Shown piece after piece: positions 1 to 12,932 of a DNA stretch of 12,932 nucleotides. The DNA lies in the IMG/VR virus record IMGVR_UViG_2529292920_000011, positions 1 to 12,932 of that record; one strand, written 5' to 3'. The position numbers and the translations under genes are program-made. The stretch is from a virus (lineage: Duplodnaviria > Heunggongvirae > Uroviricota > Caudoviricetes). Each line of letters opens with the position of its first letter. Within the stretch, counting starts at the first letter, position 1. The notes under the pieces were generated by a model that saw only the letters and a program-made list of their open reading frames with translations, was not told the origin of the DNA and did no database searches.

Positions 1-11
1 GTTTGGGGGAA
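1..11. other. Partial invertase crossover site 1 (right half only; centre dinucleotide lies 1-2 nt upstream of the window)
   Basis: Window opens with GTTTGGGGGAA, the reverse complement of the left half of site 3 (TTCCCCCAAACC) minus one base. It sits at the 5' boundary of cassette A, as sites 2-5 sit at the other cassette boundaries. Confidence 0.5.
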
Positions 12-536
12 GGCTCTGCACTGCCCGTTGGTGTACCTGTTCCGTGGCCCTCAGCCACTCCACCAACGGGCTGGCTGAAATGCAACGGCGCAGCATTTTC
101 TTCTGAAGATTACCCCAAATTGGCACAGGCTTACCCCGCGAACAAATTACCGGATCTACGGGGTGAATTTATCCGTGGCTGGGATGATGGACGTGGCTTG
201 GATGCTGGGCGTGCCTTGCTAAGTCTTCAGGATGACTCTTTTGAAGCGCACAGGCATGAGTCCTTTTTTTATGCGGGTATTTCACGTAATGAGACCCCAT
301 TAAAAAATCTTCCAAGTTCAGACGAGATGCTGACTTTAAGTTCCACAACTAATGCCTTGTCCCCGGACAGTATTGATGCCACCAACTCGTTAATTGGTAA
401 TGACGATTACAACTGTCTTATCGAAGGGAATAAAAATAACAAACGAACAGCGACAGGACTGAGTACCAGTATTGTCGGCACAGCAGAAACACGCCCCCGC
501 AACGTTGCATTCAATTACATCGTAAGAGCTGCATGA
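3..536 (+). CDS. Tail-fibre C-terminal receptor-binding cassette A (tail-collar type), 5'-partial; the constant N-terminal part of the fibre gene must lie upstream of the window
   Basis: Frame is open from the window edge, so the 'M' in the track is an internal TTG (Leu). Conserved N-terminal block GEGSALPVGVPVPWPSATPPTGWLKCNGAAFSSE..LPDLRGEFIRGWDDGRG, an HxH motif (HRHES) and the C-terminal ETRPRNVAFNYIVRAA are shared with the other cassettes. Motif pattern matches phage tail-collar / MdpB-like fibre tips. Confidence 0.8.
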   Translation: MGEGSALPVGVPVPWPSATPPTGWLKCNGAAFSSEDYPKLAQAYPANKLPDLRGEFIRGWDDGRGLDAGRALLSLQDDSFEAHRHESFFYAGISRNETPLKNLPSSDEMLTLSSTTNALSPDSIDATNSLIGNDDYNCLIEGNKNNKRTATGLSTSIVGTAETRPRNVAFNYIVRAA

Positions 537-555
537 AAACGTTGGTTTAGGGGAA
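530..555. other. Crossover site 2 (gix/hix-like, 12+2+12)
   Basis: TGCATGAAAACG-TT-GGTTTAGGGGAA. The AAAAC..GTTT core resembles Gin/Hin sites (AAACC-NN-GGTTT). Overlaps the TGA stop of cassette A and begins the conserved leader of cassette B. Site 4 is its exact reverse complement. Confidence 0.6.
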
Positions 556-576
556 GGCTCTGCACTGCCCGTTGGT

Positions 577-1023
577 GTGCCCGTTCCGTGGCCCTTAGCA
601 ACACCACCAACGGGCTGGCTGAAATGTAACGGTGCAGCATTTTCTTCTGAAATGTACCCCAATCTGGCAAAAGCCTACCCCACCAATAAATTACCGGATT
701 TACGGGGCGAATTTATTCGTGGCTGGGATGATGGGCGAGGAATTGATGCAGCACGCGCTTTATTGAGCATTCAAACCGGGATGTTGGAAAAACACCGCCA
801 TATTGTTGTAGCTAACGATGGATATGACACAAAGGATGAATGGGAGTTGGCCACGATTTTCAAAAAAACATATACACAAGGCAGGGGGCTTGATGCCACA
901 AATACAGGAGGGAGTTTGATTCCATCACCAACGCTTCATTCACGAGGAAGTATTGGTAACACAGGTGGTAGTGAAACCCGCCCCCGCAATATTGCATTTA
1001 ACTATATCGTGAGGGCGGCTTAG
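577..1023 (+). CDS. Tail-fibre C-terminal cassette B (silent alternative cassette; frame is open from 526, through site 2)
   Basis: Same conserved N-terminal block (PVPWPLATPPTGWLKCNGAAFSSEMYP...LRGEFIRGWDDGRG), HxH (HRH) and C-terminal ETRPRNIAFNYIVRAA, with a different middle segment. No promoter or constant region is attached, so it is expressed only after rearrangement. Confidence 0.7.
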   Translation: MPVPWPLATPPTGWLKCNGAAFSSEMYPNLAKAYPTNKLPDLRGEFIRGWDDGRGIDAARALLSIQTGMLEKHRHIVVANDGYDTKDEWELATIFKKTYTQGRGLDATNTGGSLIPSPTLHSRGSIGNTGGSETRPRNIAFNYIVRAA

Positions 1024-1209
1024 TTATATTCAACTGGCTGCTGCCAGTGGTATTTCCGGCAAGTTGATATCTGGTGCCATGTTTATATCCATTGCGTTCA
1101 GCGCGTCTATATAATCCAGCACGGCGTTAAGCCGGGTGGTTTCTGCCTGCGTCAACTTCCGCCGGCCTGCAACTTCAACTGAATCAGACTTATGGAAGCC
1201 ATTGCCGCA

Positions 1210-1641
1210 TCAGCCAGTGACTGGCGCTTGGTTTCTGCCCGCTTCTACTGCGGCACTATGTTGTGCCTCAGTATCTGTCACCCATTTTTCACCATCCCAT
1301 TTATCGTATGGCGTCGACGGGGAGATAGTGGTTGTATTTTTCGGGTAGTCACCTAGCGTCGTGATTTCTTCGGTGTTTCCCGTGTCAGTGTTATAGACGG
1401 TTTCACCACGATGATCTGGCGTATACTCCCATGAATTTAAATTCTCCGAACGGCGGATAGCATAGCCCGCTTTATGTGCGCCCGGGGCATCTAAACAGGA
1501 ATTTGCCGGAATACCGACACCCGCAGCAAGATATTCAGTTGATTCGGAAATATATTCCCGTGTCTCACCATCATAGTTATAAACGACGATGTTTCCTGCC
1601 TGTACGGCAATAAGGTCATCATTTAATATCGCGTTATTCAT
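1210..1641 (-). CDS. Tail-fibre assembly chaperone (Tfa, lambda Tfa / Mu U family), N-terminal 143 codons ending at an in-frame TGA; probable pseudogene whose remnant extends to about 1030
   Basis: Recalled lambda Tfa pattern is matched (VYN.., G.PANS, W...DHRGETVY, Y.KW.G..WV.DTEA). Start ATG overlaps the stop of cassette C (TAATG coupling). Beyond the TGA at 1210-1212 the same frame still encodes a Tfa-like C-terminus (KLTQAETTRLNAVLDYIDALNAMDINMAPDINLPEIP) down to a stop at 1030-1032. Confidence 0.6.
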   Translation of the reverse strand: MNNAILNDDLIAVQAGNIVVYNYDGETREYISESTEYLAAGVGIPANSCLDAPGAHKAGYAIRRSENLNSWEYTPDHRGETVYNTDTGNTEEITTLGDYPKNTTTISPSTPYDKWDGEKWVTDTEAQHSAAVEAGRNQAPVTG

Positions 1642-2099
1642 TATGCGGTTCTCACAATATAATTGAAGGCAATATTGCGTGGGCGGGTTTCATTCCCCTC
1701 TGAGGATTCCGTTCTGTATTGACTGGTAAATCTACCGTTAATTGCACCTTGCCGGACGGCGTTATCTGTCGACAACAGACTATCCCCGCCTTTGTCATTT
1801 GGCACCAGTACCGTGTTATCCCACGCATCCCATGACCGAATATTATGATAATGACTTCCTGTTAACCACCCCTGCATGCTTAAGATGACCCTTCCGGCAT
1901 CCACCCCGCGCCCATCATCCCAGCCACGGATAAATTCACCGCGTAAGTCTGGTAATTTATTGGTGGGGTAAGCCATTGCCAGTCTGGGATACATTTCAGA
2001 AGAAAATGCTGCGCCGTTACATTTCAGCCACCCCGTTGGCGGCGTGGCTGAGGGCCATGGAACAGGTACACCAACGGGCAGTGCAGAGCCTTCCCCCAA
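1641..2099 (-). CDS. Tail-fibre C-terminal cassette C (the only cassette followed by a tfa gene)
   Basis: Conserved leader GEGSALPVGVPVPWPSATPPTGWLKCNGAAFSSEMYP..LRGEFIRGWDDGRG, HxH (HYH), C-terminal ETRPRNIAFNYIVRTA. The 'M' is an internal TTG; the frame opens inside site 3. Confidence 0.75.
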   Translation of the reverse strand: MGEGSALPVGVPVPWPSATPPTGWLKCNGAAFSSEMYPRLAMAYPTNKLPDLRGEFIRGWDDGRGVDAGRVILSMQGWLTGSHYHNIRSWDAWDNTVLVPNDKGGDSLLSTDNAVRQGAINGRFTSQYRTESSEGNETRPRNIAFNYIVRTA

Positions 2100-2116
2100 A
2101 CCAACGTTTTCATGCG
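2091..2116. other. Crossover site 3 (inverted relative to sites 1 and 2)
   Basis: TTCCCCCAAACC-AA-CGTTTTCATGCG. Central AA on the plus strand, against TT in site 2. Lies at the D/C cassette junction and overlaps the stop of cassette D. Confidence 0.6.
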
Positions 2117-2583
2117 GCTCTTACGATGTAATTAAATGCAACGTTGCGAGGGCGAGTTTCTGTACCTACATTTCCACTAATTTCACCAAACCGTTTTACA
2201 TTACGAGAGCTAATGGCTCGTAGTGAGGAAGGCACATTTAAACCGGGTTCGTCTGTTTTAACTATTCCCCCGTCCCCGTATGTAGCCAGTATTCCAGGGT
2301 CTACTCCTTCCCGTGTACTTCCCGCGGCAAGTCCACCCCCGGTCCATAATTCCATATAGTGTGCATGATCCAAAATTGTGTGTGGCTGCCAATTAAGCAG
2401 AGCGCGGCCAGCATCCACCCCGCGCCCATCATCCCAGCCGCGAATAAATTCGCCCCGTAAATCCGGTAATTTATTGGCGGGGTAGGCCTTTGCCAGATTG
2501 GGGTACATTTCAGAAGAAAATGCTGCACCGTTACATTTCAGCCAGCCCGTTGGCGGCGTGGCTGAAGGCCATGGAACGGGCAC
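2110..2583 (-). CDS. Tail-fibre C-terminal cassette D
   Basis: Conserved leader, HxH (HAH), C-terminal ETRPRNVAFNYIVRAA. Its first 63 residues are near-identical to cassette B, matching the inverted-repeat geometry. Confidence 0.75.
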   Translation of the reverse strand: MPVPWPSATPPTGWLKCNGAAFSSEMYPNLAKAYPANKLPDLRGEFIRGWDDGRGVDAGRALLNWQPHTILDHAHYMELWTGGGLAAGSTREGVDPGILATYGDGGIVKTDEPGLNVPSSLRAISSRNVKRFGEISGNVGTETRPRNVAFNYIVRAA

Positions 2584-2604
2584 ACCAACGGGCAGCGCCG
2601 AGCC

Positions 2605-2630
2605 TTCCCCTAAACCAACGTTTTCATGCA
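2605..2630. other. Crossover site 4
   Basis: TTCCCCTAAACC-AA-CGTTTTCATGCA, the exact reverse complement of site 2. Lies at the E/D cassette junction and overlaps the stop of cassette E. Confidence 0.6.
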
Positions 2631-3214
2631 GCTCTTACGATGTAATTGAATGCAACGTTGCGGGGGCGTGTTTCTGCTGTGCCGACAATACTGGTACTCA
2701 GTCCTGTCGCTGTTCGTTTGTTATTTTTATTCCCTTCGATAAGACAGTTGTAATCGTCATTACCAATTAACGAGTTGGTGGCATCAATACTGTCCGGGGA
2801 CAAGGCATTAGTTGTGGAACTTAAAGTCAGCATCTCGTCTGAACTTGGAAGATTTTTTAATGGGGTCTCATTACGTGAAATACCCGCATAAAAAAAGGAC
2901 TCATGCCTGTGCGCTTCAAAAGAGTCATCCTGAAGACTTAGCAAGGCACGCCCAGCATCCAAGCCACGTCCATCATCCCAGCCACGGATAAATTCACCCC
3001 GTAGATCCGGTAATTTGTTCGCGGGGTAAGCCTGTGCCAATTTGGGGTAATCTTCAGAAGAAAATGCTGCGCCGTTGCATTTCAGCCAGCCCGTTGGTGG
3101 AGTGGCTGAGGGCCACGGAACAGGCACACCAACGGGCAGTGCAGAGCCTTCTCCTAAACCAACGTTTTCGTCTTTATCCCTACCTATACCAACTATGTAT
3201 TTTTCACGAAACAA
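2624..3214 (-). CDS. Tail-fibre C-terminal cassette E (inverted duplicate of cassette A; silent here)
   Basis: Residues 20-196 are identical to cassette A. The frame opens only at 3226, immediately after a stop, so no constant fibre N-terminus is attached in this orientation. Confidence 0.75.
   Translation of the reverse strand: MFREKYIVGIGRDKDENVGLGEGSALPVGVPVPWPSATPPTGWLKCNGAAFSSEDYPKLAQAYPANKLPDLRGEFIRGWDDGRGLDAGRALLSLQDDSFEAHRHESFFYAGISRNETPLKNLPSSDEMLTLSSTTNALSPDSIDATNSLIGNDDYNCLIEGNKNNKRTATGLSTSIVGTAETRPRNVAFNYIVRAA
3149..3174. other. Crossover site 5 (outermost site, adjacent to the invertase gene)
   Basis: TTCTCCTAAACC-AA-CGTTTTCGTCTT. The inner half is conserved with sites 3 and 4; the outer half diverges, as expected for a site bordering non-invertible DNA. 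It lies 55 bp upstream of the invertase ATG, as gixR/cixR lie next to gin/cin. Confidence 0.6.
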
Positions 3215-3228
3215 AGAGGATGTTTTTT

Positions 3229-3828
3229 ATGCAAATTGGCTATATTCGTGTGTCAACAAATGACCAGAACACGGATTTACAACGCAATGCACTGAACTGC
3301 GCAGGATGTGAACTGATTTTTGAAGATAAAATCAGCGGAACGAAATCAGCCAGACCGGGATTGAAAAAACTGCTCAGAACGCTATCAGAAGGAGATACGC
3401 TGGTTGTCTGGAAGCTGGACAGACTGGGCAGAAGTATGAAACACCTGATCACGCTTATTGAGGAATTGCGGAAAAAAGGTGTTAATTTCCGTAGTCTGAC
3501 GGACAGCATTGACACATCAACACCCATGGGGCGTTTCTTTTTTCACGTCATGGGGGCTTTAGCCGAAATGGAACGTGAATTAATTGTAGAGCGTACACTG
3601 GCCGGGCTGGCAGCAGCACGCGCACAAGGACGCATTGGCGGACGTCGCCCGAAGTTGACAAAAGAACAACACGAGCAAATAGCGAGGCTGATTAAATACG
3701 GTCATGACAGGAAACAACTGGCGATCATTTACGACATCGGCATATCGACGATTTATCGTTATCACCCTGTAGGCGATATACAGGCTGAAGAAACAACCAG
3801 GCAGACTCAGGAAAATGAAAACCGCTAA
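3229..3828 (+). CDS. Site-specific DNA invertase, serine recombinase of the Gin/Pin/Hin/Cin family
   Basis: N-terminus MQIGYIRVSTNDQNTDLQRNAL with the catalytic Ser in the YIRVSTNDQ motif; central VVWKLDRLGRSMKHLI and GRFFFHVMGALAEMERELI; C-terminal HTH (GISTIYRY). AGAGGA Shine-Dalgarno 8 nt upstream of the ATG at 3229. The track ORF 3034-3828 is an upstream in-frame extension running through site 5 and is unlikely to be real. Confidence 0.93.
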   Translation: MQIGYIRVSTNDQNTDLQRNALNCAGCELIFEDKISGTKSARPGLKKLLRTLSEGDTLVVWKLDRLGRSMKHLITLIEELRKKGVNFRSLTDSIDTSTPMGRFFFHVMGALAEMERELIVERTLAGLAAARAQGRIGGRRPKLTKEQHEQIARLIKYGHDRKQLAIIYDIGISTIYRYHPVGDIQAEETTRQTQENENR

Positions 3829-3847
3829 TCTGACCATTAGCGGTTTT
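3818..3847. terminator. Bidirectional intrinsic terminator between the convergent invertase and gpU genes
   Basis: Perfect 12-bp stem AAAACCGCTAAT / ATTAGCGGTTTT with a 6-nt loop (CTGACC). The invertase TAA stop lies inside the stem. T-run on the plus strand; TTTTCATTTTCC follows on the minus strand. Confidence 0.6.
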
Positions 3848-3854
3848 GCGTTAA

Positions 3855-4349
3855 TCAAAACAGCCCTTTAACGGAGCTGGCCGCGCTGTTAAGAGATGAT
3901 GTCACCTTGTCTTTGAAGCCGGACAGCATATCACTGAACGATGAGGATTGCAGGCGCTCCCGCAAATCCTCATCACAGCGTTCAAGAGTCAGTGAAAATT
4001 CTATCTTTTTCGCCTTACCGTAGCGATCAAACTCGGAGCGGGTCGTATTCGTTTCAGTCAGTACATACATGCCGTAAATCTGCCCGACACCATCAATCAG
4101 AGGCCAGGGGCGTCCTGTATATGCCTGCGTGGTCAGCAGCGAAAGCGACACTTCGCCACCTGTAATTTCAGGATAAAGCACGCCAGAAAGCACGATGCGA
4201 TCATCACCTGCACCGATATACTGCCAGCTTGCTGAGCGGTTTACGCGCTCATTTTTCACATGCCGCCAGCTTTTGTTTTGCTGTAACTGCTGATGCGGCA
4301 ATGTGCGCAGCTCAAAAACAAACATGCCGTAGATCATCATCATGGCCAT
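3855..4349 (-). CDS. Tail protein gpU-like (P2 U family)
   Basis: 164-aa ORF directly downstream of the tape measure gene on the same strand, the usual gpU position. Contains WRHVKNERV and LSGVLYPEITGG segments that I recall from gpU proteins. True start may be an internal Met. Confidence 0.75.
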   Translation of the reverse strand: MAMMMIYGMFVFELRTLPHQQLQQNKSWRHVKNERVNRSASWQYIGAGDDRIVLSGVLYPEITGGEVSLSLLTTQAYTGRPWPLIDGVGQIYGMYVLTETNTTRSEFDRYGKAKKIEFSLTLERCDEDLRERLQSSSFSDMLSGFKDKVTSSLNSAASSVKGLF

Positions 4350-4355
4350 GACTCC

Positions 4356-7199
4356 TCAATCTTTATCGTAAAAACTGCCACGCCCGGCACGGGCGCGCCG
4401 TTCCATCTCTGCCCTGACCATTTCGCCGACCAGTTTCGCCAGTTCGCGGGGATTCTGTGTAACAACGTTATGCAGATGAACATGAATTTCACCACCAAAT
4501 CCGGAGGCAACAGGCTCCCGGTTACGGGAAGTTGCAGGAACTGATGCCACTGGCGATCGTATGGCCTCCGCCACCGGGCGGGAGCTGGCCGCAACAACAG
4601 GGACCAGCGCCGGAGGCAGCGGAGCCGGAACCACGGGTGTGATATTAATTGCGGGGGCAGGCTTACTGACCTGCGCAATCTTCCGCTCCTGCCACTCCCC
4701 ACGAACAGCAAGTGCGCGGGGCAGGTTCTTAAAGACAATATCGCCGGGGCCAATGCGTTTTTTCGTCTCATCAACCAGCTTACCTGTGTTATCAGCAATT
4801 TTGCTGAGTCTGCGTAGCGTGCCGGTATTGCTGTCTGTGAGCGGTTTGTTGTCTTTGGGGTTATCGCCTCCGGTGCCATTGCCATTTTCCACAGGCTTCG
4901 GCGGATTGATTTTCGCAATGTCTCCCTGAAACAGAGCAACCTTGTCCTGAAGAATGGCCGCACGCTGTGCGTCTTCGATTTTCTTTCTCGCCCTTTCCGC
5001 TTCATCCGGAAGCACACCGAGTTTTTCAAGTATCCACGCCAGCGTATCCAGCAACATTTTTGCAGGCGTCAGAACAAGCTGTAGCGCGCCACCAAGAACG
5101 TTACCGAATATCTCGCCAGCACTGGTACATTTATCCAGCGTTTCCTTGCTGGACTCCATCGGTGACAACAGCGATTTAAACCAGTTAAACACCTGGCTGA
5201 TCCCGCTTCCGATTGCGTCAAAAACAGGGCCAAACCGTTCAAAGGTTTCGCGCAACGGGGTCAGCCTTTCCATAATCCCGCTGAACACCCCGGCAAAAAA
5301 TGCCCTGATGGGATCCCAGTATTTCCAGATGAGAACGGCAGCTCCGGCAAGCGCAGCCACGATAAGACCGACCGGACTGAACAACGCCCCGATAGCGCCT
5401 CCCAGTAAAGAAACGGACCACGTCACCATTCCCCATAACGCAGGCAACACTCTGACAACATTCATTGACCGGGTAAGAATGTCGAAACCAAGACGCAGGG
5501 TGGCCAGCTTCCCGTAAAGCACCCCAATAACCAGTGACAACGAGCCAATCGTTGCAGTCATTGCCAGCAACGCACCGCCTGCTATCAGTAGCTGGCGCGT
5601 CAGTACCGGATGGGCCTGCGCCAGCGAGGTGATTTTTTCAAGCACCCGCGTGAACCACTGCGTGACAGAACGCAGCGGACCGTCAACCAGATCACTGATG
5701 CGAATACGAAGACCTTCCCATGCGCTGTCGAGATTTTTCAGGTCCCCATCAAGATTATCGGCCATTACTTTTGCGACGCGATCGGCCTCTCCCCTTGCCC
5801 CCTGCAATTCTCTGGTCAGTTTTTGCAGCTCTCCTGAACCAGCCGCCGCAACAAGCGTCTGCAAACCAACGAACGCCTCTTCTCCGGCGATGTCCTTGAA
5901 GAAGGAAACCTGGTCCACCTGTCCGTATTTTTGTGTCGCCTTATAGAGATCAAGCAGCACATCCTCCATCGGGCGCATTTTGCCTCTGGCGTCAGCAACT
6001 GACACTCCCAGCTCTTTCAGCGCATCAGCCGCAGCTTTTGGCGGTGATGCAAGGCGGGACAGACTTGCGCGCATGGCCGTACCAGCATCGCTTCCGCGAA
6101 GACCATTATTGGCAAGCATCCCGGCCATGGCCGCCGCTTCTTCAAGACTGATACCAAGTTTTGCGGCAACCGGACCGGTATACTTCATGGTTTCGCCCAG
6201 CGCGCGTAAATCAGTATTGGTCCGGGTGAATGCTGCTGTCAGCGTATCGCCAACCCGGTCCATTTGATCGGCTGTCAGGTTGAACTGTGTGAGGATATTG
6301 GAGCCTATATCAGCCGTCTCGCCGAGTTCGACGCCACCTGCCAGCGCCATATTAAGAACACCGGGCAATGCGGCCTGAATGGCCTGCGGAGTAAAACCAG
6401 CCATTGCCAGAAAGCTCTGCCCACTGGCGGCATCACTCGCAGTAAACTGTGTTTCAGAGCCAAGTTTTAACGCCTGCTCACGCAGCGCCTTAAACTGCGG
6501 GCTGTTTTTGTCGATTCGCGTCAGTGCCTGAACGCGGGACATCTCTTTGCCGAACCCGATCGCAGGCTGCAAAAAACGCCCGGCAGCATAGCCGCCCGCC
6601 GCTGCCGCACCAATTGCCAGCGCACCACCTGTTTTCAGTTTTCCCGCAGTTTCCTGCGCGCGCGAATACCGCTCACGCGCCCTCGTTACACGCGCAAGCG
6701 CCTGCCGTTCGCGTTCAAGCTGGTTGTTGTACTGTTCGGTGCGTCTGATGGCCTGCTGAATGGTGTTATCGCTGCCTGTCAGTGAAATGCCGTGGCGTTT
6801 CAGCTCTCCGCCAAGCTCCCGCATTTTCTGAATTTCCCGTGTGCGCGATTCATTCAGGCGTTCAAGCCGGGTGCTTAACTGCTGCATCAGCTTTTGTTGT
6901 TTTTCGCTGAGCACTGTACCCGTGCGTTGTAACTGATTAAGGGCGTTAAGCTGGCGTCGTGCTTTCACGATGCCCGCATCCGCTTTACTGACAGCGTCAC
7001 GGGCGCGCTCAAATGATCGCGCCTGACGCTCGAGATTTTTGATCGCCCCCTGCGTTCGCTGGATGGAGTCACCAAACTGCCCCATCAGGCGGCGGGCATT
7101 TTCGGCAGGCCGGGTCAGCCTGTCAACGGCGCTGAAAGCGACCCGGATATCAAGAGTCTTCATTGTCTGCATTCCCGCTGCGAAGTGCCGCCCGCTCAC
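4356..7199 (-). CDS. Tail tape measure protein (P2 gpT-like)
   Basis: Roughly 940-aa ORF with a coiled-coil N-terminal third, a Gly/Ala-rich central hydrophobic stretch (GALAIGAAAAGGYAAG) and a long helical/hydrophobic C-terminal half. Sits between the E/E' and U genes. True start is probably ATG 7172 (MQTMKTLDIR) or 7163, overlapping the E' stop. Confidence 0.9.
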   Translation of the reverse strand: MSGRHFAAGMQTMKTLDIRVAFSAVDRLTRPAENARRLMGQFGDSIQRTQGAIKNLERQARSFERARDAVSKADAGIVKARRQLNALNQLQRTGTVLSEKQQKLMQQLSTRLERLNESRTREIQKMRELGGELKRHGISLTGSDNTIQQAIRRTEQYNNQLERERQALARVTRARERYSRAQETAGKLKTGGALAIGAAAAGGYAAGRFLQPAIGFGKEMSRVQALTRIDKNSPQFKALREQALKLGSETQFTASDAASGQSFLAMAGFTPQAIQAALPGVLNMALAGGVELGETADIGSNILTQFNLTADQMDRVGDTLTAAFTRTNTDLRALGETMKYTGPVAAKLGISLEEAAAMAGMLANNGLRGSDAGTAMRASLSRLASPPKAAADALKELGVSVADARGKMRPMEDVLLDLYKATQKYGQVDQVSFFKDIAGEEAFVGLQTLVAAAGSGELQKLTRELQGARGEADRVAKVMADNLDGDLKNLDSAWEGLRIRISDLVDGPLRSVTQWFTRVLEKITSLAQAHPVLTRQLLIAGGALLAMTATIGSLSLVIGVLYGKLATLRLGFDILTRSMNVVRVLPALWGMVTWSVSLLGGAIGALFSPVGLIVAALAGAAVLIWKYWDPIRAFFAGVFSGIMERLTPLRETFERFGPVFDAIGSGISQVFNWFKSLLSPMESSKETLDKCTSAGEIFGNVLGGALQLVLTPAKMLLDTLAWILEKLGVLPDEAERARKKIEDAQRAAILQDKVALFQGDIAKINPPKPVENGNGTGGDNPKDNKPLTDSNTGTLRRLSKIADNTGKLVDETKKRIGPGDIVFKNLPRALAVRGEWQERKIAQVSKPAPAINITPVVPAPLPPALVPVVAASSRPVAEAIRSPVASVPATSRNREPVASGFGGEIHVHLHNVVTQNPRELAKLVGEMVRAEMERRARAGRGSFYDKD

Positions 7200-7416
7200 G
7201 CCAGCTAACCACTTCGCCGGGCGTCATCATGAAGATTTCGGCGGGCGACCAGTTAAAAATGGCGGCAATATCCGCCACCAGATCTTCGATGTGCTCAAAG
7301 CACACCAGGGTGATTACGCTGCCGTCTCCTGCACGCTCTTCGCGCCAGAGTCTGGCTCGCTCATAAAATTTACAGCCACAGCGCACAGCTGAATAAAATC
7401 GCGTGACGACATTTTT
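7150..7416 (-). CDS. E' extension frame (-1 relative to gpE); expressed only as an E+E' fusion by programmed -1 frameshift
   Basis: The -1 frame is open from 7416 to a stop at 7150-7152 and overlaps the 3' end of gpE (7314-7416). Slippery candidates lie in the overlap. Same arrangement as P2 E/E' and lambda G/GT. Confidence 0.6.
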   Translation of the reverse strand, partial: KNVVTRFYSAVRCGCKFYERARLWREERAGDGSVITLVCFEHIEDLVADIAAIFNWSPAEIFMMTPGEVVSWRERAALRSGNADNEDS

Positions 7417-7688
7417 TTAATCATCACTTCATCCAGTCGTGGCGAGGTCACGCGAGGCAACAGCGTAAACATGGTATCCGCTTTCAGATTCAGCACATCA
7501 GACAGCGACAGACCACGCAGGGATCCAGCCTGCTCAATAGCCCCGGTGATCTCCACATACGTGATTTTTTCGCCACCACGCTCAATTTGTCGGGTCAGTT
7601 TTACGCCACGTTCGACAGCCATATCCTCACCTGCCGTCACATCATCCGCCACGGTGTTATTCCGGGTTTCAGTATCGATGTCTTTCAT
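7314..7688 (-). CDS. Tail assembly chaperone gpE-like
   Basis: 124-aa ORF between the tube and tape measure genes. AGGAGA Shine-Dalgarno 6 nt upstream of the ATG at 7688. A -1 frame (E') overlaps its 3' end. Confidence 0.75.
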   Translation of the reverse strand: MKDIDTETRNNTVADDVTAGEDMAVERGVKLTRQIERGGEKITYVEITGAIEQAGSLRGLSLSDVLNLKADTMFTLLPRVTSPRLDEVMIKKMSSRDFIQLCAVAVNFMSEPDSGAKSVQETAA

Positions 7689-7743
7689 CAGTTGTCTCCT
7701 TTTCAGTCAGAGGCGACGCACTGCGCCGCCTGCATATTACTTA

Positions 7744-8256
7744 TCAGCCAAGCCCAAGCGCGGAACGGATACGGTCAGGCACAATGTCCTTGCCGTCCTT
7801 CCGGTAGATGTGGTTCAACAGGTCGATTTCCCACAGCGGGCGATCGTTAACGCTCAGCTTGTAGTAGGTGTTTTTGACAGCGTAAGTGTGTGATGTGGCT
7901 TCGCCCTGTTTGGCTTCCCCCATATCAATTTCCGTCACACGCCCGCGCATCTCGATTTCATACAGATCGCTTTCTGCATCGGTGTAGTATTCACCCGCAA
8001 AACGCAGCAGCGTGCCGTCAATCGTGCCGCCATATTTAAGGAACAGCGCACGAACAGCTCCCCCCATGACAAAACTCGCATCAAGCGCGGAGTCGTCCAG
8101 ACCGAGATCAATACTTACCGCCCCCATCATGCCACCCCCCCGGTAGCTGTCGGTTTTGCGCGTCAGTTTGGGCGGCGTGACGGATGTCACTTTACCCACT
8201 TCGTTTTCACCATCCACAAACAACGTAAAAAAGCGAAGATGTTTTGGTACAGCCAT
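7744..8256 (-). CDS. Tail tube protein (P2 FII-like)
   Basis: 170-aa ORF immediately downstream of the sheath gene, with a 1-nt stop/start overlap (TGATG). Size and position are typical of the FII tube family. Confidence 0.88.
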   Translation of the reverse strand: MAVPKHLRFFTLFVDGENEVGKVTSVTPPKLTRKTDSYRGGGMMGAVSIDLGLDDSALDASFVMGGAVRALFLKYGGTIDGTLLRFAGEYYTDAESDLYEIEMRGRVTEIDMGEAKQGEATSHTYAVKNTYYKLSVNDRPLWEIDLLNHIYRKDGKDIVPDRIRSALGLG

Positions 8257-9440
8257 CAGGCACCTCCCAGCACCGCAAATGCGGGACCAAAGAATTCATC
8301 AGTAAACGTCTGGTAAAGCTCCATGTCTTCCAGTGGCGGAACGGGCGTATATTTGTAGCGAATACGCACACGTCCCTGACGTAAATTCGTGGTGCCGTTA
8401 TCCACCACGTCATACCAGCACTCCGCGCCAATCAGTTTCCCGGCAGTAACCAGCGAATCCAGTTTTGCCCTGATGGCACTGATAACATCCTTCACGTTCG
8501 CAGGCGTCAGTGGACTGTCGATGGTTTCAAATTGCGCTTCCGCAATTGAATCAGCCAGCACCTGTGCGGCTCGGGTATACACCTCAAAGATGTAGGCGTT
8601 CGTTTCCGGTGTGCGGTTGCCCCAGAAGCGGAATCCGTTGCGACGAATAATGGTCGTGATTTCTTTGTTATTGAGGCTGTTGGCATCACTGTCTTCGGCC
8701 TGCAACGACCAGAACACATGCCTGGACATTCCCAGCACATTTTTAACCGGAACGTTGGACAGCGATTTGTGCCAGCCCTGCTCATGGTCAATGTACGCAC
8801 GAAGGCCGCACGCATAAGCAGGCGCGGGGAACGTTTCGTTTTTTCCACTTTTCGGGTTGTAGGCGATGAAGTCCGGCCATAAGAGCATCACCTCACGTTC
8901 GTTGAATTTCTGGCGGTAGGTAATCGCCTCAGCCATCGTGTTACAACCATGACATGTGGCATACACAAACGCGCGCAGTTTACCCGCAATCACGCACAGG
9001 GATTTCGTTACCGCCTCCGTGTCCAGCTCCGGCGCGGCCAGAATACGCGGACGGTATCCGATGCTTTCATCCTGCTCTGCAACAAGCAGCGCATACATCC
9101 CCGTATAGCTGCCGTCATCCTCAGAACCACCGATAACCAGTTGATCCTGCGTCTTACCGTCTTCTTCTTTGTGTTCAGCCACGCGAACGACGATCACCTT
9201 TGTGCTCACCTGGTCTGCGATGGCCTTAAGCGCACGATAAAGCGTCCCCGTTGTCCCGCATTTTCCCAGCACGTCATTGACGCGGGTCAGCAGTGTGGGC
9301 TTGTTCAGCGGGAACAGCTTCGCGTCCGCATCATCCGCCGTTGCCACGATACCGATAACGCTGGAATCAACATCGTTAATCGCTGTTACCAGGTCGGTAT
9401 TTTCCGTAACACGGGCACCATGAAAACGAGTTTCACTCAT
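8256..9440 (-). CDS. Contractile tail sheath protein (P2 FI-like)
   Basis: 394-aa ORF (MSETRFHGARVTENTDLVTAINDVDSSVIG...) of the size and position expected for a P2-type sheath, first gene of the sheath-tube-E-T-U block. Confidence 0.9.
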   Translation of the reverse strand: MSETRFHGARVTENTDLVTAINDVDSSVIGIVATADDADAKLFPLNKPTLLTRVNDVLGKCGTTGTLYRALKAIADQVSTKVIVVRVAEHKEEDGKTQDQLVIGGSEDDGSYTGMYALLVAEQDESIGYRPRILAAPELDTEAVTKSLCVIAGKLRAFVYATCHGCNTMAEAITYRQKFNEREVMLLWPDFIAYNPKSGKNETFPAPAYACGLRAYIDHEQGWHKSLSNVPVKNVLGMSRHVFWSLQAEDSDANSLNNKEITTIIRRNGFRFWGNRTPETNAYIFEVYTRAAQVLADSIAEAQFETIDSPLTPANVKDVISAIRAKLDSLVTAGKLIGAECWYDVVDNGTTNLRQGRVRIRYKYTPVPPLEDMELYQTFTDEFFGPAFAVLGGA

Positions 9441-9597
9441 AGCTTCAGCCCCTTGTATCCGTTAAATGATTCGGCAACAATCATCACCCACCACGCGCGT
9501 AATCTCACCCCTGCGCCGTTCTCCCGCCACGGCGACAACAAAAAGCAGTCCCCCCCTCCGCACGCACATGCGACCATGCCGCACAGGGAGGGAACAG

Positions 9598-10338
9598 ATG
9601 ACCGACACCACCATGCAATTGCTCAGTCAGGGCACAGACCCCGTAAAAATGCCGGATTTTGATATTCTCGCGGAGGGGAAAAGGCTGTCCGGCGTGGCAG
9701 AGCGCCTGATGAGTCTGTCACTGACCGACAACCGGGGATTTGAAGCAGACCAGCTCACCATCACGCTGGATGATGCGGATGGTCAGTTGCAGCTACCGCC
9801 ACGGGGCGCGCGTCTGACGGTTCTCATTGGCTGGAAAGGCGAACCGCTGACAGAAAAAGGTTCTTACATTGTTGATGAAATCGCACACGAAGGACCGCCG
9901 GACAGGCTGACGGTTTCAGCCAGAAGCGCAGATTTTCGGGATGAATTTAACGTTAAACGTGAGGTGTCCTGGCATGATGTGACCGTTGAGCGTGTGGTAT
10001 CCGCCATCGCTCATCGGTACGGCCTGAAACCGCAAATCAGCGAAATGCTGATGGATATCGAAATCGACCACGCCGACCAGACCGAAGAAAGCGACATGTC
10101 CTTCCTTACGCGCATGGCGGAAATGCTGGGCGCAATCACCACGGTAAAAAGCGGTAATCTGTTATTCATCATGCCAGGCGGTGGCGTGAACGCACAGGGC
10201 CAGCCGTTGCCATCGTTCGCCATCACACGCAGCAGCGGCGATCGCCATCAGTTCCGCATTGCTGACCGCGAGGCGTATACGGGGGTACGCGCCTACTGGC
10301 TTGATCTTAATTACGGGAAAAAGAAAAAGTCAGCGTGA
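9598..10338 (+). CDS. gpD-like tail protein (P2 late control gene D family), N-terminal 246 codons, ended prematurely by a frame change
   Basis: ATG at 9598 preceded by GGGAGGG (the track start 9466 is an upstream extension). Sequence ...LTVLIGWKGEPL...LTVSARSADFRDEF...SFLTRMAEMLGA...YTGVRAYWLDLNYGKKKKSA* stops inside an A-rich tract. Confidence 0.75.
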   Translation: MTDTTMQLLSQGTDPVKMPDFDILAEGKRLSGVAERLMSLSLTDNRGFEADQLTITLDDADGQLQLPPRGARLTVLIGWKGEPLTEKGSYIVDEIAHEGPPDRLTVSARSADFRDEFNVKREVSWHDVTVERVVSAIAHRYGLKPQISEMLMDIEIDHADQTEESDMSFLTRMAEMLGAITTVKSGNLLFIMPGGGVNAQGQPLPSFAITRSSGDRHQFRIADREAYTGVRAYWLDLNYGKKKKSA

Positions 10339-10706
10339 AACGCCGCAAACCGCCCAAGCTCAAAAAGGAGAAAAGCAGCAGCCGTGAAGGTGATTATATG
10401 GAAGGCGCGGAAGGCAATGTTTTTGTGTTACGCAAGACTTATCAGAACGAGCAGGCAGCAAGACGCGCAGCGGCGGCAAAGTGGCAGCAGCTACAACGCG
10501 GAGCCGCATCATTCTCCATCACGCTGGCGCGTGGACGTGCAGAACTCTACCCCGAAATGCATGGCACGGTAACAGGATTTAAAAGCGAGATTGATAATCA
10601 GGACTGGATTATTGCAAAAGCCGAGCACACCATTGATAACAGCGGCTTTACCACACAGCTTGAGCTTGAAGCAAAAATCCCGGAATGGATAGCAGAAACA
10701 GAATAA
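10335..10706 (+). CDS. gpD-like tail protein, C-terminal part in the -1 frame (frame open from 10311)
   Basis: ...AAAKWQQLQRGAASFSITLARGRAELYPEMHGTVTGFKSEID...GFTTQLELEAKIPEWIAETE is the continuation of a single gpD. Together the two parts give about 370 aa, the normal gpD size. Confidence 0.7.
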   Translation: MKRRKPPKLKKEKSSSREGDYMEGAEGNVFVLRKTYQNEQAARRAAAAKWQQLQRGAASFSITLARGRAELYPEMHGTVTGFKSEIDNQDWIIAKAEHTIDNSGFTTQLELEAKIPEWIAETE

Positions 10707-10834
10707 ATCTCTTAAAAATATTATTTTTGAGATGTGCTTCTACACTGACAGTAAGAACAAAAGATAATGTATCAGCCCACTAGATGTCAGAGGTTGGGGC
10801 ATCAACCAGATGCTAACAATAATACGGATGTTTT

Positions 10835-10864
10835 TCCCACATGACAGAGGAAGTCAAGTATAAT
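10835..10864 (+). promoter_or_regulatory. Candidate sigma70 promoter for the AT-rich island genes
   Basis: -35 ATGACA (10835-10840), 18-bp spacer, -10 TATAAT (10859-10864), about 90 bp upstream of the ATG at 10955. Found by eye only. Confidence 0.3.
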
Positions 10865-10954
10865 CTTCACAGTCCCTCCCGTCCAAGGGAATATGACTCA
10901 ATAGTAAAAGTTCCAGTTTAGTTAGTAGACCCACACTTTATAGAAGAGTAAATC

Positions 10955-11902
10955 ATGATTGGACAATTTTTAAGTGCAACAGAGATTTTAGCAAAGAACT
11001 ATGTTCGTAATAAAATGGTTAAAAATCCATTTTATTCGAATTTAAAATGGAATTTTGTTGAAAAAAACATCATAAGATTAACATCCTCACCGGTTAAATC
11101 AGTACTTTGCATATCAGCTTTTTCATTTGTACTACTTTATGTTGGATATTTAAACGAATTATTTATAAAAAAGAATCTTTTACATTATTTCCCGTTTAGG
11201 CATTCATTAACCGAATGGCAAACAACCATTTTAAGTGGCCAATTGACAATTATTGGTATTGTATACCCCCTTGTTATAGGTTTAGTAAGTGTCTTATTCC
11301 AAAAAAAAGCAGATAGAAAAATAGCCCAAACTGCTTATCAGCGTTACTCAGGATTCATGCTTGCTGGACTCAGCGGGCTTTTCTTATCAGGATTTATACT
11401 TCTCAGTGTACTAATTAAAACTGTCTTTGGAAGTTATCTTTATGGTATAGCCTGTCTAATCAGCATATTATGGCTTTTGATAAACATAGTTCTTTCTATT
11501 TGGTTCTTTATCGTGAGCCTTGAAATTCTTGATGATGTAAAACGGCAAATAATTATAAAGCGATACATTGCCTTCGAAATAGTAATGCCCCATATTTGTA
11601 ACAAAATCTCAGCCAATCTTAGGTTATACCCTATCTATCAAAAACATAACTATTCAAATTTAGAAATCAAGCAAGCCGATTACAAAGGAGAATACATATC
11701 TGTGGCTAGCAGTTATTCTAAGGAAGATGAGTTAAGTTTATATCACCGTCCTTTTCAACTTATTCTTAATCTTATTAATTACCAACTAAAAAAAAGAATC
11801 ATTTTGCGTCATTTGTCATTGGTGATAATCGTGCAAAAGAAACAGAATCCACGGGTAAGATACTTTTTAGCGTTAAAAATATCAAACCAGACAGCTTATT
11901 AA
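10955..11902 (+). CDS. Multi-pass membrane protein of unknown function (4-5 predicted TM helices), first part of a probable larger gene
   Basis: 315-codon open frame in about 30% GC DNA, where stops are frequent. Hydrophobic segments: VLCISAFSFVLLYVGYL, LTIIGIVYPLVIGLVSVLF, GFMLAGLSGLFLSGFILLSVLI, YLYGIACLISILWLLINIVLSIWFFIVSL. No family recognised. Confidence 0.65.
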   Translation: MIGQFLSATEILAKNYVRNKMVKNPFYSNLKWNFVEKNIIRLTSSPVKSVLCISAFSFVLLYVGYLNELFIKKNLLHYFPFRHSLTEWQTTILSGQLTIIGIVYPLVIGLVSVLFQKKADRKIAQTAYQRYSGFMLAGLSGLFLSGFILLSVLIKTVFGSYLYGIACLISILWLLINIVLSIWFFIVSLEILDDVKRQIIIKRYIAFEIVMPHICNKISANLRLYPIYQKHNYSNLEIKQADYKGEYISVASSYSKEDELSLYHRPFQLILNLINYQLKKRIILRHLSLVIIVQKKQNPRVRYFLALKISNQTAY

Positions 11903-12932
11903 TAAAAATACTTAAGCAATGTTTTTATAGGGCTCCGATTAAAGGAGGAGATTTTTCCGTAAGTCTTACAATGCAGGCTATAACAGCAGATACGTATATG
12001 TATCTGCGGGATTCTGATCTCTTTAGTTTTGACGATGCTATCTCTGCATTAATTAATAACTTTAATAATCTCTGCGATTTGTATTTTTTTCAAGATGACA
12101 ATACCAACAATAATTTCTTACTGATCACTACAGAATTATTTGAACGGAGTTTTCAATATGAGTTTTCAGATGAAGTTTATAAAATATCAAATAATTCCAT
12201 GGATAAAATTAATCTTTCTGAAAGATTTTTTGAATTATGTCTTTGGAGCGGAGTGCGTATTCTTAATAATAGAAAACATCTTATCAGCAATGAACTTTGT
12301 ATCTATATGGGAATTACTCGTTCACAATGGTCAATATTAACAGAATGGTTCCGAAACAACCAATCACTCTTAAATGCCTCGCTTCGTTCACGTTATAATC
12401 GTATATTAAGAACCTATGCCACTGTTTGGGAGCAATATCAAGAAAGCATCAACTTTCGTTTCTGCAATACAGAGAATTCAGATTTATTTGAATTATTTTG
12501 CAAAACGCAACTACAAGAACTTCCATCGATCATTATTGATGCAACACAGACTCGCGATCCTTCTACTATTGATACAGCCGTCGATCTTATTAACCGATGG
12601 CAGCACTCAATGAATATTGACAGCCATTCGGTAGAAAAATACAGTTACCAAGGCCAGCTTTTTAACCCGGGTTTTTTCATCTCCAAAAAACTAAACTTCA
12701 ATTCAGACAGAGAGTGGTTCAATATTGCCATCATAAATGCGTTGACTGACATGCGTATATGCACATGTCTTTATCTGACATCAAGAATCAATACTTCTGA
12801 CAAACTAATGACACATTACATTAAACTTATTTTAGAGGGTAAACTTATTGACCAAACCGGTGGATATGAAACTCCCACTGAAGAAATTGATAATGCAAGC
12901 CAACTAATCAAGATATTAGTTAGAATCTGCCT
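11779..12932 (+). CDS. Long ORF of unknown function, 3'-partial (runs off the window); probable continuation of the membrane-protein gene in the -1 frame
   Basis: I translated this frame by hand; it has no stop from 11779 to the window end (about 384 codons) in AT-rich DNA. First ATG is at 11971; AGGAGG at 11944-11949 is too far from it to be a convincing RBS. It is not in the ORF track, presumably because it has no stop in the window. Confidence 0.6.

Follow-up and report, generated by a model that had tools for sequence, protein, structure and literature searches.

The gene for the baseplate hub protein gpD ('late control D') of a P2-family prophage appears, in a draft genome of Escherichia coli, as two open reading frames rather than one. 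This raises the question of whether the gene has been broken by mutation, is decoded by an unusual route, or has been misread. The window analysed here, a stretch of 12,932 nt, is the complete contig AIEZ01000017.1 of assembly GCA_000249135.2; the AIEZ accession belongs to the drafts of the E. coli DECA collection (Hazen et al. 2012, PMC3558956). The prophage on this contig, of which the tail end is covered, is of the P88 type (Xuanwuvirus). The biological weight of the question is small, bearing at most on whether the prophage of one DECA strain still builds tails, and the explanation is ordinary whether it is an artefact or a mutation, with nothing new in either. The locus does carry a caution, in that a 'frameshifted gpD' in a draft sequence of a P88-like prophage should not be read as decay or as recoding without the support of reads.

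A gpD gene split at a compound adenine tract

The whole of gpD occupies positions 9598-10706 of the window, on the plus strand, and falls into two open reading frames owing to a shortfall of a single nucleotide. The N-terminal frame (9598-10338) runs from an ATG at 9598 to a TGA at 10336-10338, comprising 246 codons and the stop, and ends in the residues DLNYGKKKKSA. The C-terminal one (10335-10706), lying in the -1 frame, encodes 123 aa from a GTG at 10335, which overlaps the upstream stop codon as GTGA, to a stop at 10704-10706. The -1 frame opens after a TAA at 10308-10310, such that the only stretch across which both frames are open is 10311-10335, and this overlap falls inside GGGAAAAAGAAAAAG. 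Here lies a compound tract (10318-10328), in which GGG is followed by five adenines (10318-10322), a G (10323), five further adenines (10324-10328) and another G; it is the sole site in the window at which two runs of at least five adenines are found one base apart.

In relatives the tract reads GGGAAAAAGAAAAAAG, equivalent to A5-G-A6, and alignment places the missing A of the window in the second run. With one A inserted within 10324-10328, the gene encodes 369 aa that match, residue for residue, gpD of the relative H1, that of L007 (Logan assembly SRR25118670) and the E. coli protein WP_049143930.1; the window differs in having A5 rather than A6, hence the split. A single uninterrupted reading frame is present in the relatives, as against the 246 and 123 codons of the window. 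The initial annotation had described these two fragments as offset by -1 and jointly open over 10311-10335 only, and had held that one extra A would restore a protein of about 370 aa; a deterministic reading of the sequence agrees with the former statement, and the repaired protein, being the same as the gpD of the nearest relatives, bears out the latter.

Both fragments can be placed on the Pfam profile Phage_GPD (PF05954), with the N-terminal half matching profile positions 48-207 at 29.6 bits and the C-terminal half positions 218-304 of 305 at 28.0 bits, against a cut-off of 30.1 bits. The corresponding protein of a relative in which the gene is in one piece, identical to the repaired product of the window, matches positions 48-304 at 63.6 bits. 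This relative's gpD is also homologous to a baseplate protein of the R2 pyocin, 6U5H_C (E = 9.4e-41, residues 18-356 aligned), and is 48% identical, by tblastn, to the gpD of P2, which is of the same family and fold class. Compared with P2 gpD and 6U5H_C, the type of gpD found in the window has a longer lysine-rich insertion at approximately residues 240-262, which is the site of the tract. The break thus sits in a lysine-rich stretch, where there are gaps in the alignment to the pyocin hub; the alignments of several distant homologues end near residues 236-240.

In many genomes, including those at loci L002 (3507-4307) and L003 (3508-4308), PGAP has called an intact gpD as a 266 aa 'contractile injection system protein, VgrG/Pvc8 family', accompanied by a short antisense pseudo 'hypothetical protein'. 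These calls were considered as a sign that the split is widespread, but were rejected as such: they reflect the choice of start site, with the full reading frame open and the tract at A6.

Layout of the tail cluster

The setting of gpD is a P2-type tail module, composed of sheath, tube, E/E', tape measure and U genes, with ogr downstream. Positions 1-3828 are occupied by tail fibre cassettes together with a DNA invertase of the resolvase type (3229-3828, plus strand), with ORFs encoding Collar domains on both strands. This region has multiple cassettes and fragments of tail fibre assembly genes, and is similar to the switch by which P88 and its relatives change host range through inversion. 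The Collar-domain ORFs at 1-3214 were rejected as further frameshift fragments, as an invertible region of several fibre cassettes, invertase included, is likewise found in relatives and in P88.

The remaining tail genes, from U to the tube gene FII (3855-8256), are all intact and lie on the minus strand, in the order and orientation seen in P88. They comprise U (3855-4343; 162 aa, against 164 aa in P88), the tape measure gene (4356-7163), the small GpE-family ORF E' (7150-7305; 51 aa), E (7314-7688; 124 aa, against 121 aa in P88) and FII (7744-8256). The tail sheath gene FI (8256-9440), on the same strand and divergent from gpD, is likewise intact at 394 aa, and the assembly collection lists 420 blocks with an identical protein. 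Apart from gpD, the lengths of the tail genes equal those of the closest relatives, and only E and U differ slightly from P88. The E ORF and the small GpE-family ORF, at 7150-7688 on the minus strand, overlap the start of the tape measure gene; the conserved -1 frameshift of P2-type tail chaperones (E/E+E') would be expected here.

In P2 itself, the block from FI to U is oriented in the same way as D. The opposed strands of these genes in the window are also found in the isolated phage P88 and in every relative examined, in the order of fibre cassettes and invertase on the plus strand, U, T, E', E, FII and FI on the minus strand, and D on the plus strand. DNA identity to Xuanwuvirus records is 95-97%. 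The gpD region of P88 itself (YP_009113094.1) is approximately 97% identical, and there too the gene diverges from that of the sheath and is followed by a cargo slot and ogr. In the window, the cargo slot is filled by an AT-rich gene that begins at 10955, after gpD, and continues beyond the end of the contig (12932).

The 'inversion' of the tail block is hence the normal layout of the genus and not a rearrangement, which corrects the idea that opposed orientations of this block and gpD mark one. It had been suggested, from the inversion and the broken gpD taken together, that the tail cluster is decaying and non-inducible; this suggestion falls, given that the layout is standard for P88 and its relatives and that every other tail gene is intact.

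Decoding across the tract

Were the A5 tract real, the hub could conceivably still be made from the split gene, through a -1 slip of the ribosome on A_AAG, through transcriptional slippage, or through termination and reinitiation at GTGA to give a hub in two pieces. The overlap of the two frames contains two in-frame A_AAG tetramers; were the ribosome to slip by -1 on the latter of these (codon 10327-10329), the product would be exactly the wild-type protein. The juxtaposition of the N-terminal stop and the downstream GTG is of the kind that reinitiation would use, and the position of the break, in a gap-prone stretch close to where distant homologues cease to align, also speaks for a division that might be borne.

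However, the frame 0 codons across the tract are GGG AAA AAG AAA AAG, giving G_AAA_AAG twice, and no X_XXY_YYZ heptamer is found in this frame; the remark in the initial annotation that a canonical in-frame slippery heptamer is absent therefore stands, as there are only A_AAG tetramers. Nor does the sequence downstream appear structured: the 91 nt at 10330-10420 fold at -17.9 kcal/mol, compared with a mean of -21.05 kcal/mol for shuffled sequences (z = +1.07), and 177 of the 200 shuffles were as good. In E. coli, tetramers that lack a stimulator give around 0.15% frameshifting, relative to a background of 0.11% (PMC4066793). The arrangement in two frames is, moreover, not conserved, with one ORF in the relatives and gpD aligning as a single continuous stretch in 451 of the 525 phage records that have a homologue. 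Transcriptional slippage requires a long run of A or T, of approximately eight to nine nucleotides or more. By this general threshold the runs in the window, at just 5 nt, are too short for appreciable slippage.

There is some likeness to known sites of programmed -1 frameshifting in E. coli and its phages, such as those of dnaX and IS911 (both A_AAA_AAG), lambda G/GT (G_GGA_AAG) and P2 E/E+E', in the A/G-rich lysine codons, the -1 overlap and the in-frame A_AAG. Unlike these, the gpD locus has neither a heptamer in register, nor a stimulatory structure, nor two conserved frames, and falls outside this class. Programmed recoding as a designed feature is excluded, since the slippery heptamer and the downstream structure are missing and the split is not conserved. 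A gpD that functions as a recoded or divided gene is very improbable, and it is equally hard to credit that a real A5 allele is tolerated, with the hub still produced by -1 slippage or as two polypeptides parted in a poorly conserved, lysine-rich linker. The initial annotation preferred the loss of one nucleotide, or an error in sequencing the homopolymer, to programmed recoding, and rightly so, the tract being one A shorter than in essentially all relatives, the split unconserved and a frameshift signal lacking.

Deletion or miscall

The choice between these two depends on how widely the shorter tract is found and on what the reads of the strain indicate. A 60-nt probe carrying the A5 form of the tract was matched to 1126 E. 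coli chromosome and plasmid records from complete genomes, the length of the tract being judged from the span of the match. The length seen in the window occurred in only one of them, that of strain KSC9; in a sample of 60 rows taken across the ranking, the tract was one base longer than in the window in all 59 others. A pattern search permitting variable run lengths, in IMG/VR and the GTDB species representatives, retrieved 122 loci, with run lengths of (5,6) in 118 and (5,5) in four, and no other combination. The comparison of tract length between homologues that had been proposed as a check thus finds A6 to be nearly universal, and a conserved split was not found among the 1126 records and 122 loci.

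Two of the sequences retrieved, in DEQA01000038.1 (a metagenome-assembled genome named 'Planococcaceae bacterium UBA3378') and in 'Vagococcus sp. WN89Y', have the exact gpD tract of E. coli phages in contigs assigned to Firmicutes, which is probably the result of contamination or mis-binning.

The nearest relatives of the window were picked through a common allele of the cargo gene. Over 7956-12932, L007 and L008 (GCA_048001485.1) differ from the window by two SNPs and the one A, and over 9913-12932 L010 (Logan SRR22078033) differs by one SNP and the one A. All three have A6, and in L007 the 369 aa gpD has been called. Conversely, products of 246 aa and 123 aa are recorded solely on AIEZ01000017.1. 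The missing A is thus the only private indel against these relatives in about 5 kb, and the AIEZ contig is not grossly error-ridden. These observations bear in two directions on the possibility that the prophage has suffered a very recent, genuine loss of one A from A6 by strand slippage, leaving gpD null and the hub truncated after residue 244. The frameshift is, after all, present in the deposited sequence; short runs of A are classic sites of replication slippage, and a contig otherwise clean in comparison with L007 and L008 is what such a loss would leave. Against this, the A5 allele is private to one draft from 2012.

Five other examples of A5-G-A5 were found, in L052, L078, L081 and L125 (IMG/VR UViGs 2526164634, 2526164666, 2529292922 and 2534681936, respectively) and in KSC9. 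They represent independent lineages with 91-97% identity to the window. The alignment of KSC9 to the window, at 92% identity, has 46 gaps over 7.5 kb, and in this genome the genes for the sheath, gpD, a methyltransferase, flk and a transporter are all flagged as 'frameshifted'. When L078 is compared with a relative of 99.85% identity, there are five gaps, each of which is a 1-nt homopolymer deletion; L052, compared with a relative of 98.5% identity, has four further 1-nt indels, mostly in or beside short runs of one base. Hence at least three of the five assemblies carry other homopolymer indels, and the A5-G-A6 tract looks like a site of recurrent miscalling.

That the only A5 allele among the 1126 complete-genome records lies in an assembly as rich in indels as KSC9 counts against a mutation, as it implies that genuine loss at the tract is rare in nature, at no more than approximately 0.1%. 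The frequency of A5 also varies with the collection, being 1 in 1126 in complete genomes and 4 in 119 among the IMG/VR loci (Fisher p = 3.7e-4), most of which are, judging from their identifiers, draft genomes of isolates. Such variation fits an artefact of technology, whereas a mutational hotspot should be independent of the collection.

A second view of the locus comes from the Logan assembly of SRR094159, which must derive from reads of the same strain: its contig SRR094159_220 corresponds to 3123-10321 of the window with zero differences, both of the private SNPs included. This contig ends in GGGAAAA at 10321, within the tract, and the sequence resumes at AAAAAGTC. A second contig, SRR094159_556, was located through a product beginning at 10326, whilst look-up of one beginning at 10329 gave no match; it starts with AAAAAGTCAGC (10324) and extends to 12505, such that only 10322-10323 are left unassembled between the two. 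Both of the contig ends that do not fall in repeats (10321 and 12505) lie in A runs, and the assembly crosses 68 other runs of five or more identical bases unbroken. The break at the tract indicates, through the de Bruijn graph, that the reads disagree on the lengths of the runs on either side of the central G. It is a sign of ambiguity and not of the true length, as a true A5-G-A5 sequenced with noise would break the graph alike. At 11061-11067 the same assembly has A6, as against A7 in the AIEZ contig and in all relatives, and its shorter run throws the cargo gene out of frame at that point. For a real deletion, then, it is unfavourable both that the strain's own reads fail to assemble across the tract and that the length of another A run nearby is wrong.

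With a probability of roughly 0.7, the split in gpD arose because the length of a homopolymer was miscalled in the 2012 draft contig. The reads would have come from a platform prone to homopolymer errors, perhaps similar to 454, and the consensus would have under-called the second A run; the real prophage most likely has the A5-G-A6 tract and an intact 369 aa gpD. Such an event would resemble the homopolymer indel artefacts of flow-based and long-read assemblies, in which the undercall of one base in an A run likewise produces an apparent frameshift and recurs in unrelated assemblies, with the difference that the sequencing platform in the present case is only presumed. Error is favoured over deletion by the rarity of A5 and its occurrence in indel-ridden assemblies, by the dependence of its frequency on the collection, and by the break of the Logan contigs at the tract. 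A genuine null mutation is the less likely account, though one that retains most of the remaining probability.

Were the mutation real, the truncated gpD would lack positions 218-304 of Phage_GPD, which make up the last third of the hub at its C-terminus. In P2 the tail cannot do without this gene, so a prophage with a real A5 tract could not build tails; with the cluster otherwise intact, this would be an ordinary first step in the inactivation of a prophage.

One further A run lends the mutation some weight. At 11788-11795, in the poly-A of the cargo gene 1.5 kb downstream, the window has A8 where some relatives, such as H1, have A9. This was considered as a second sequencing error and rejected, as A8 is common to four independent assemblies; frameshifts in A runs therefore do really occur in this lineage of prophages. 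The A8 allele splits the cargo gene into ORFs of 315 aa and 700 aa. The gene, located between gpD and ogr, has a GC content of approximately 0.33, compared with approximately 0.54 in the tail genes; in relatives it encodes a 1039 aa orphan protein, for which no match was obtained in Pfam, PADLOC or NCBIfam. Of the 5426 complete genomes of E. coli, only five carry the gene, all of them with A9.
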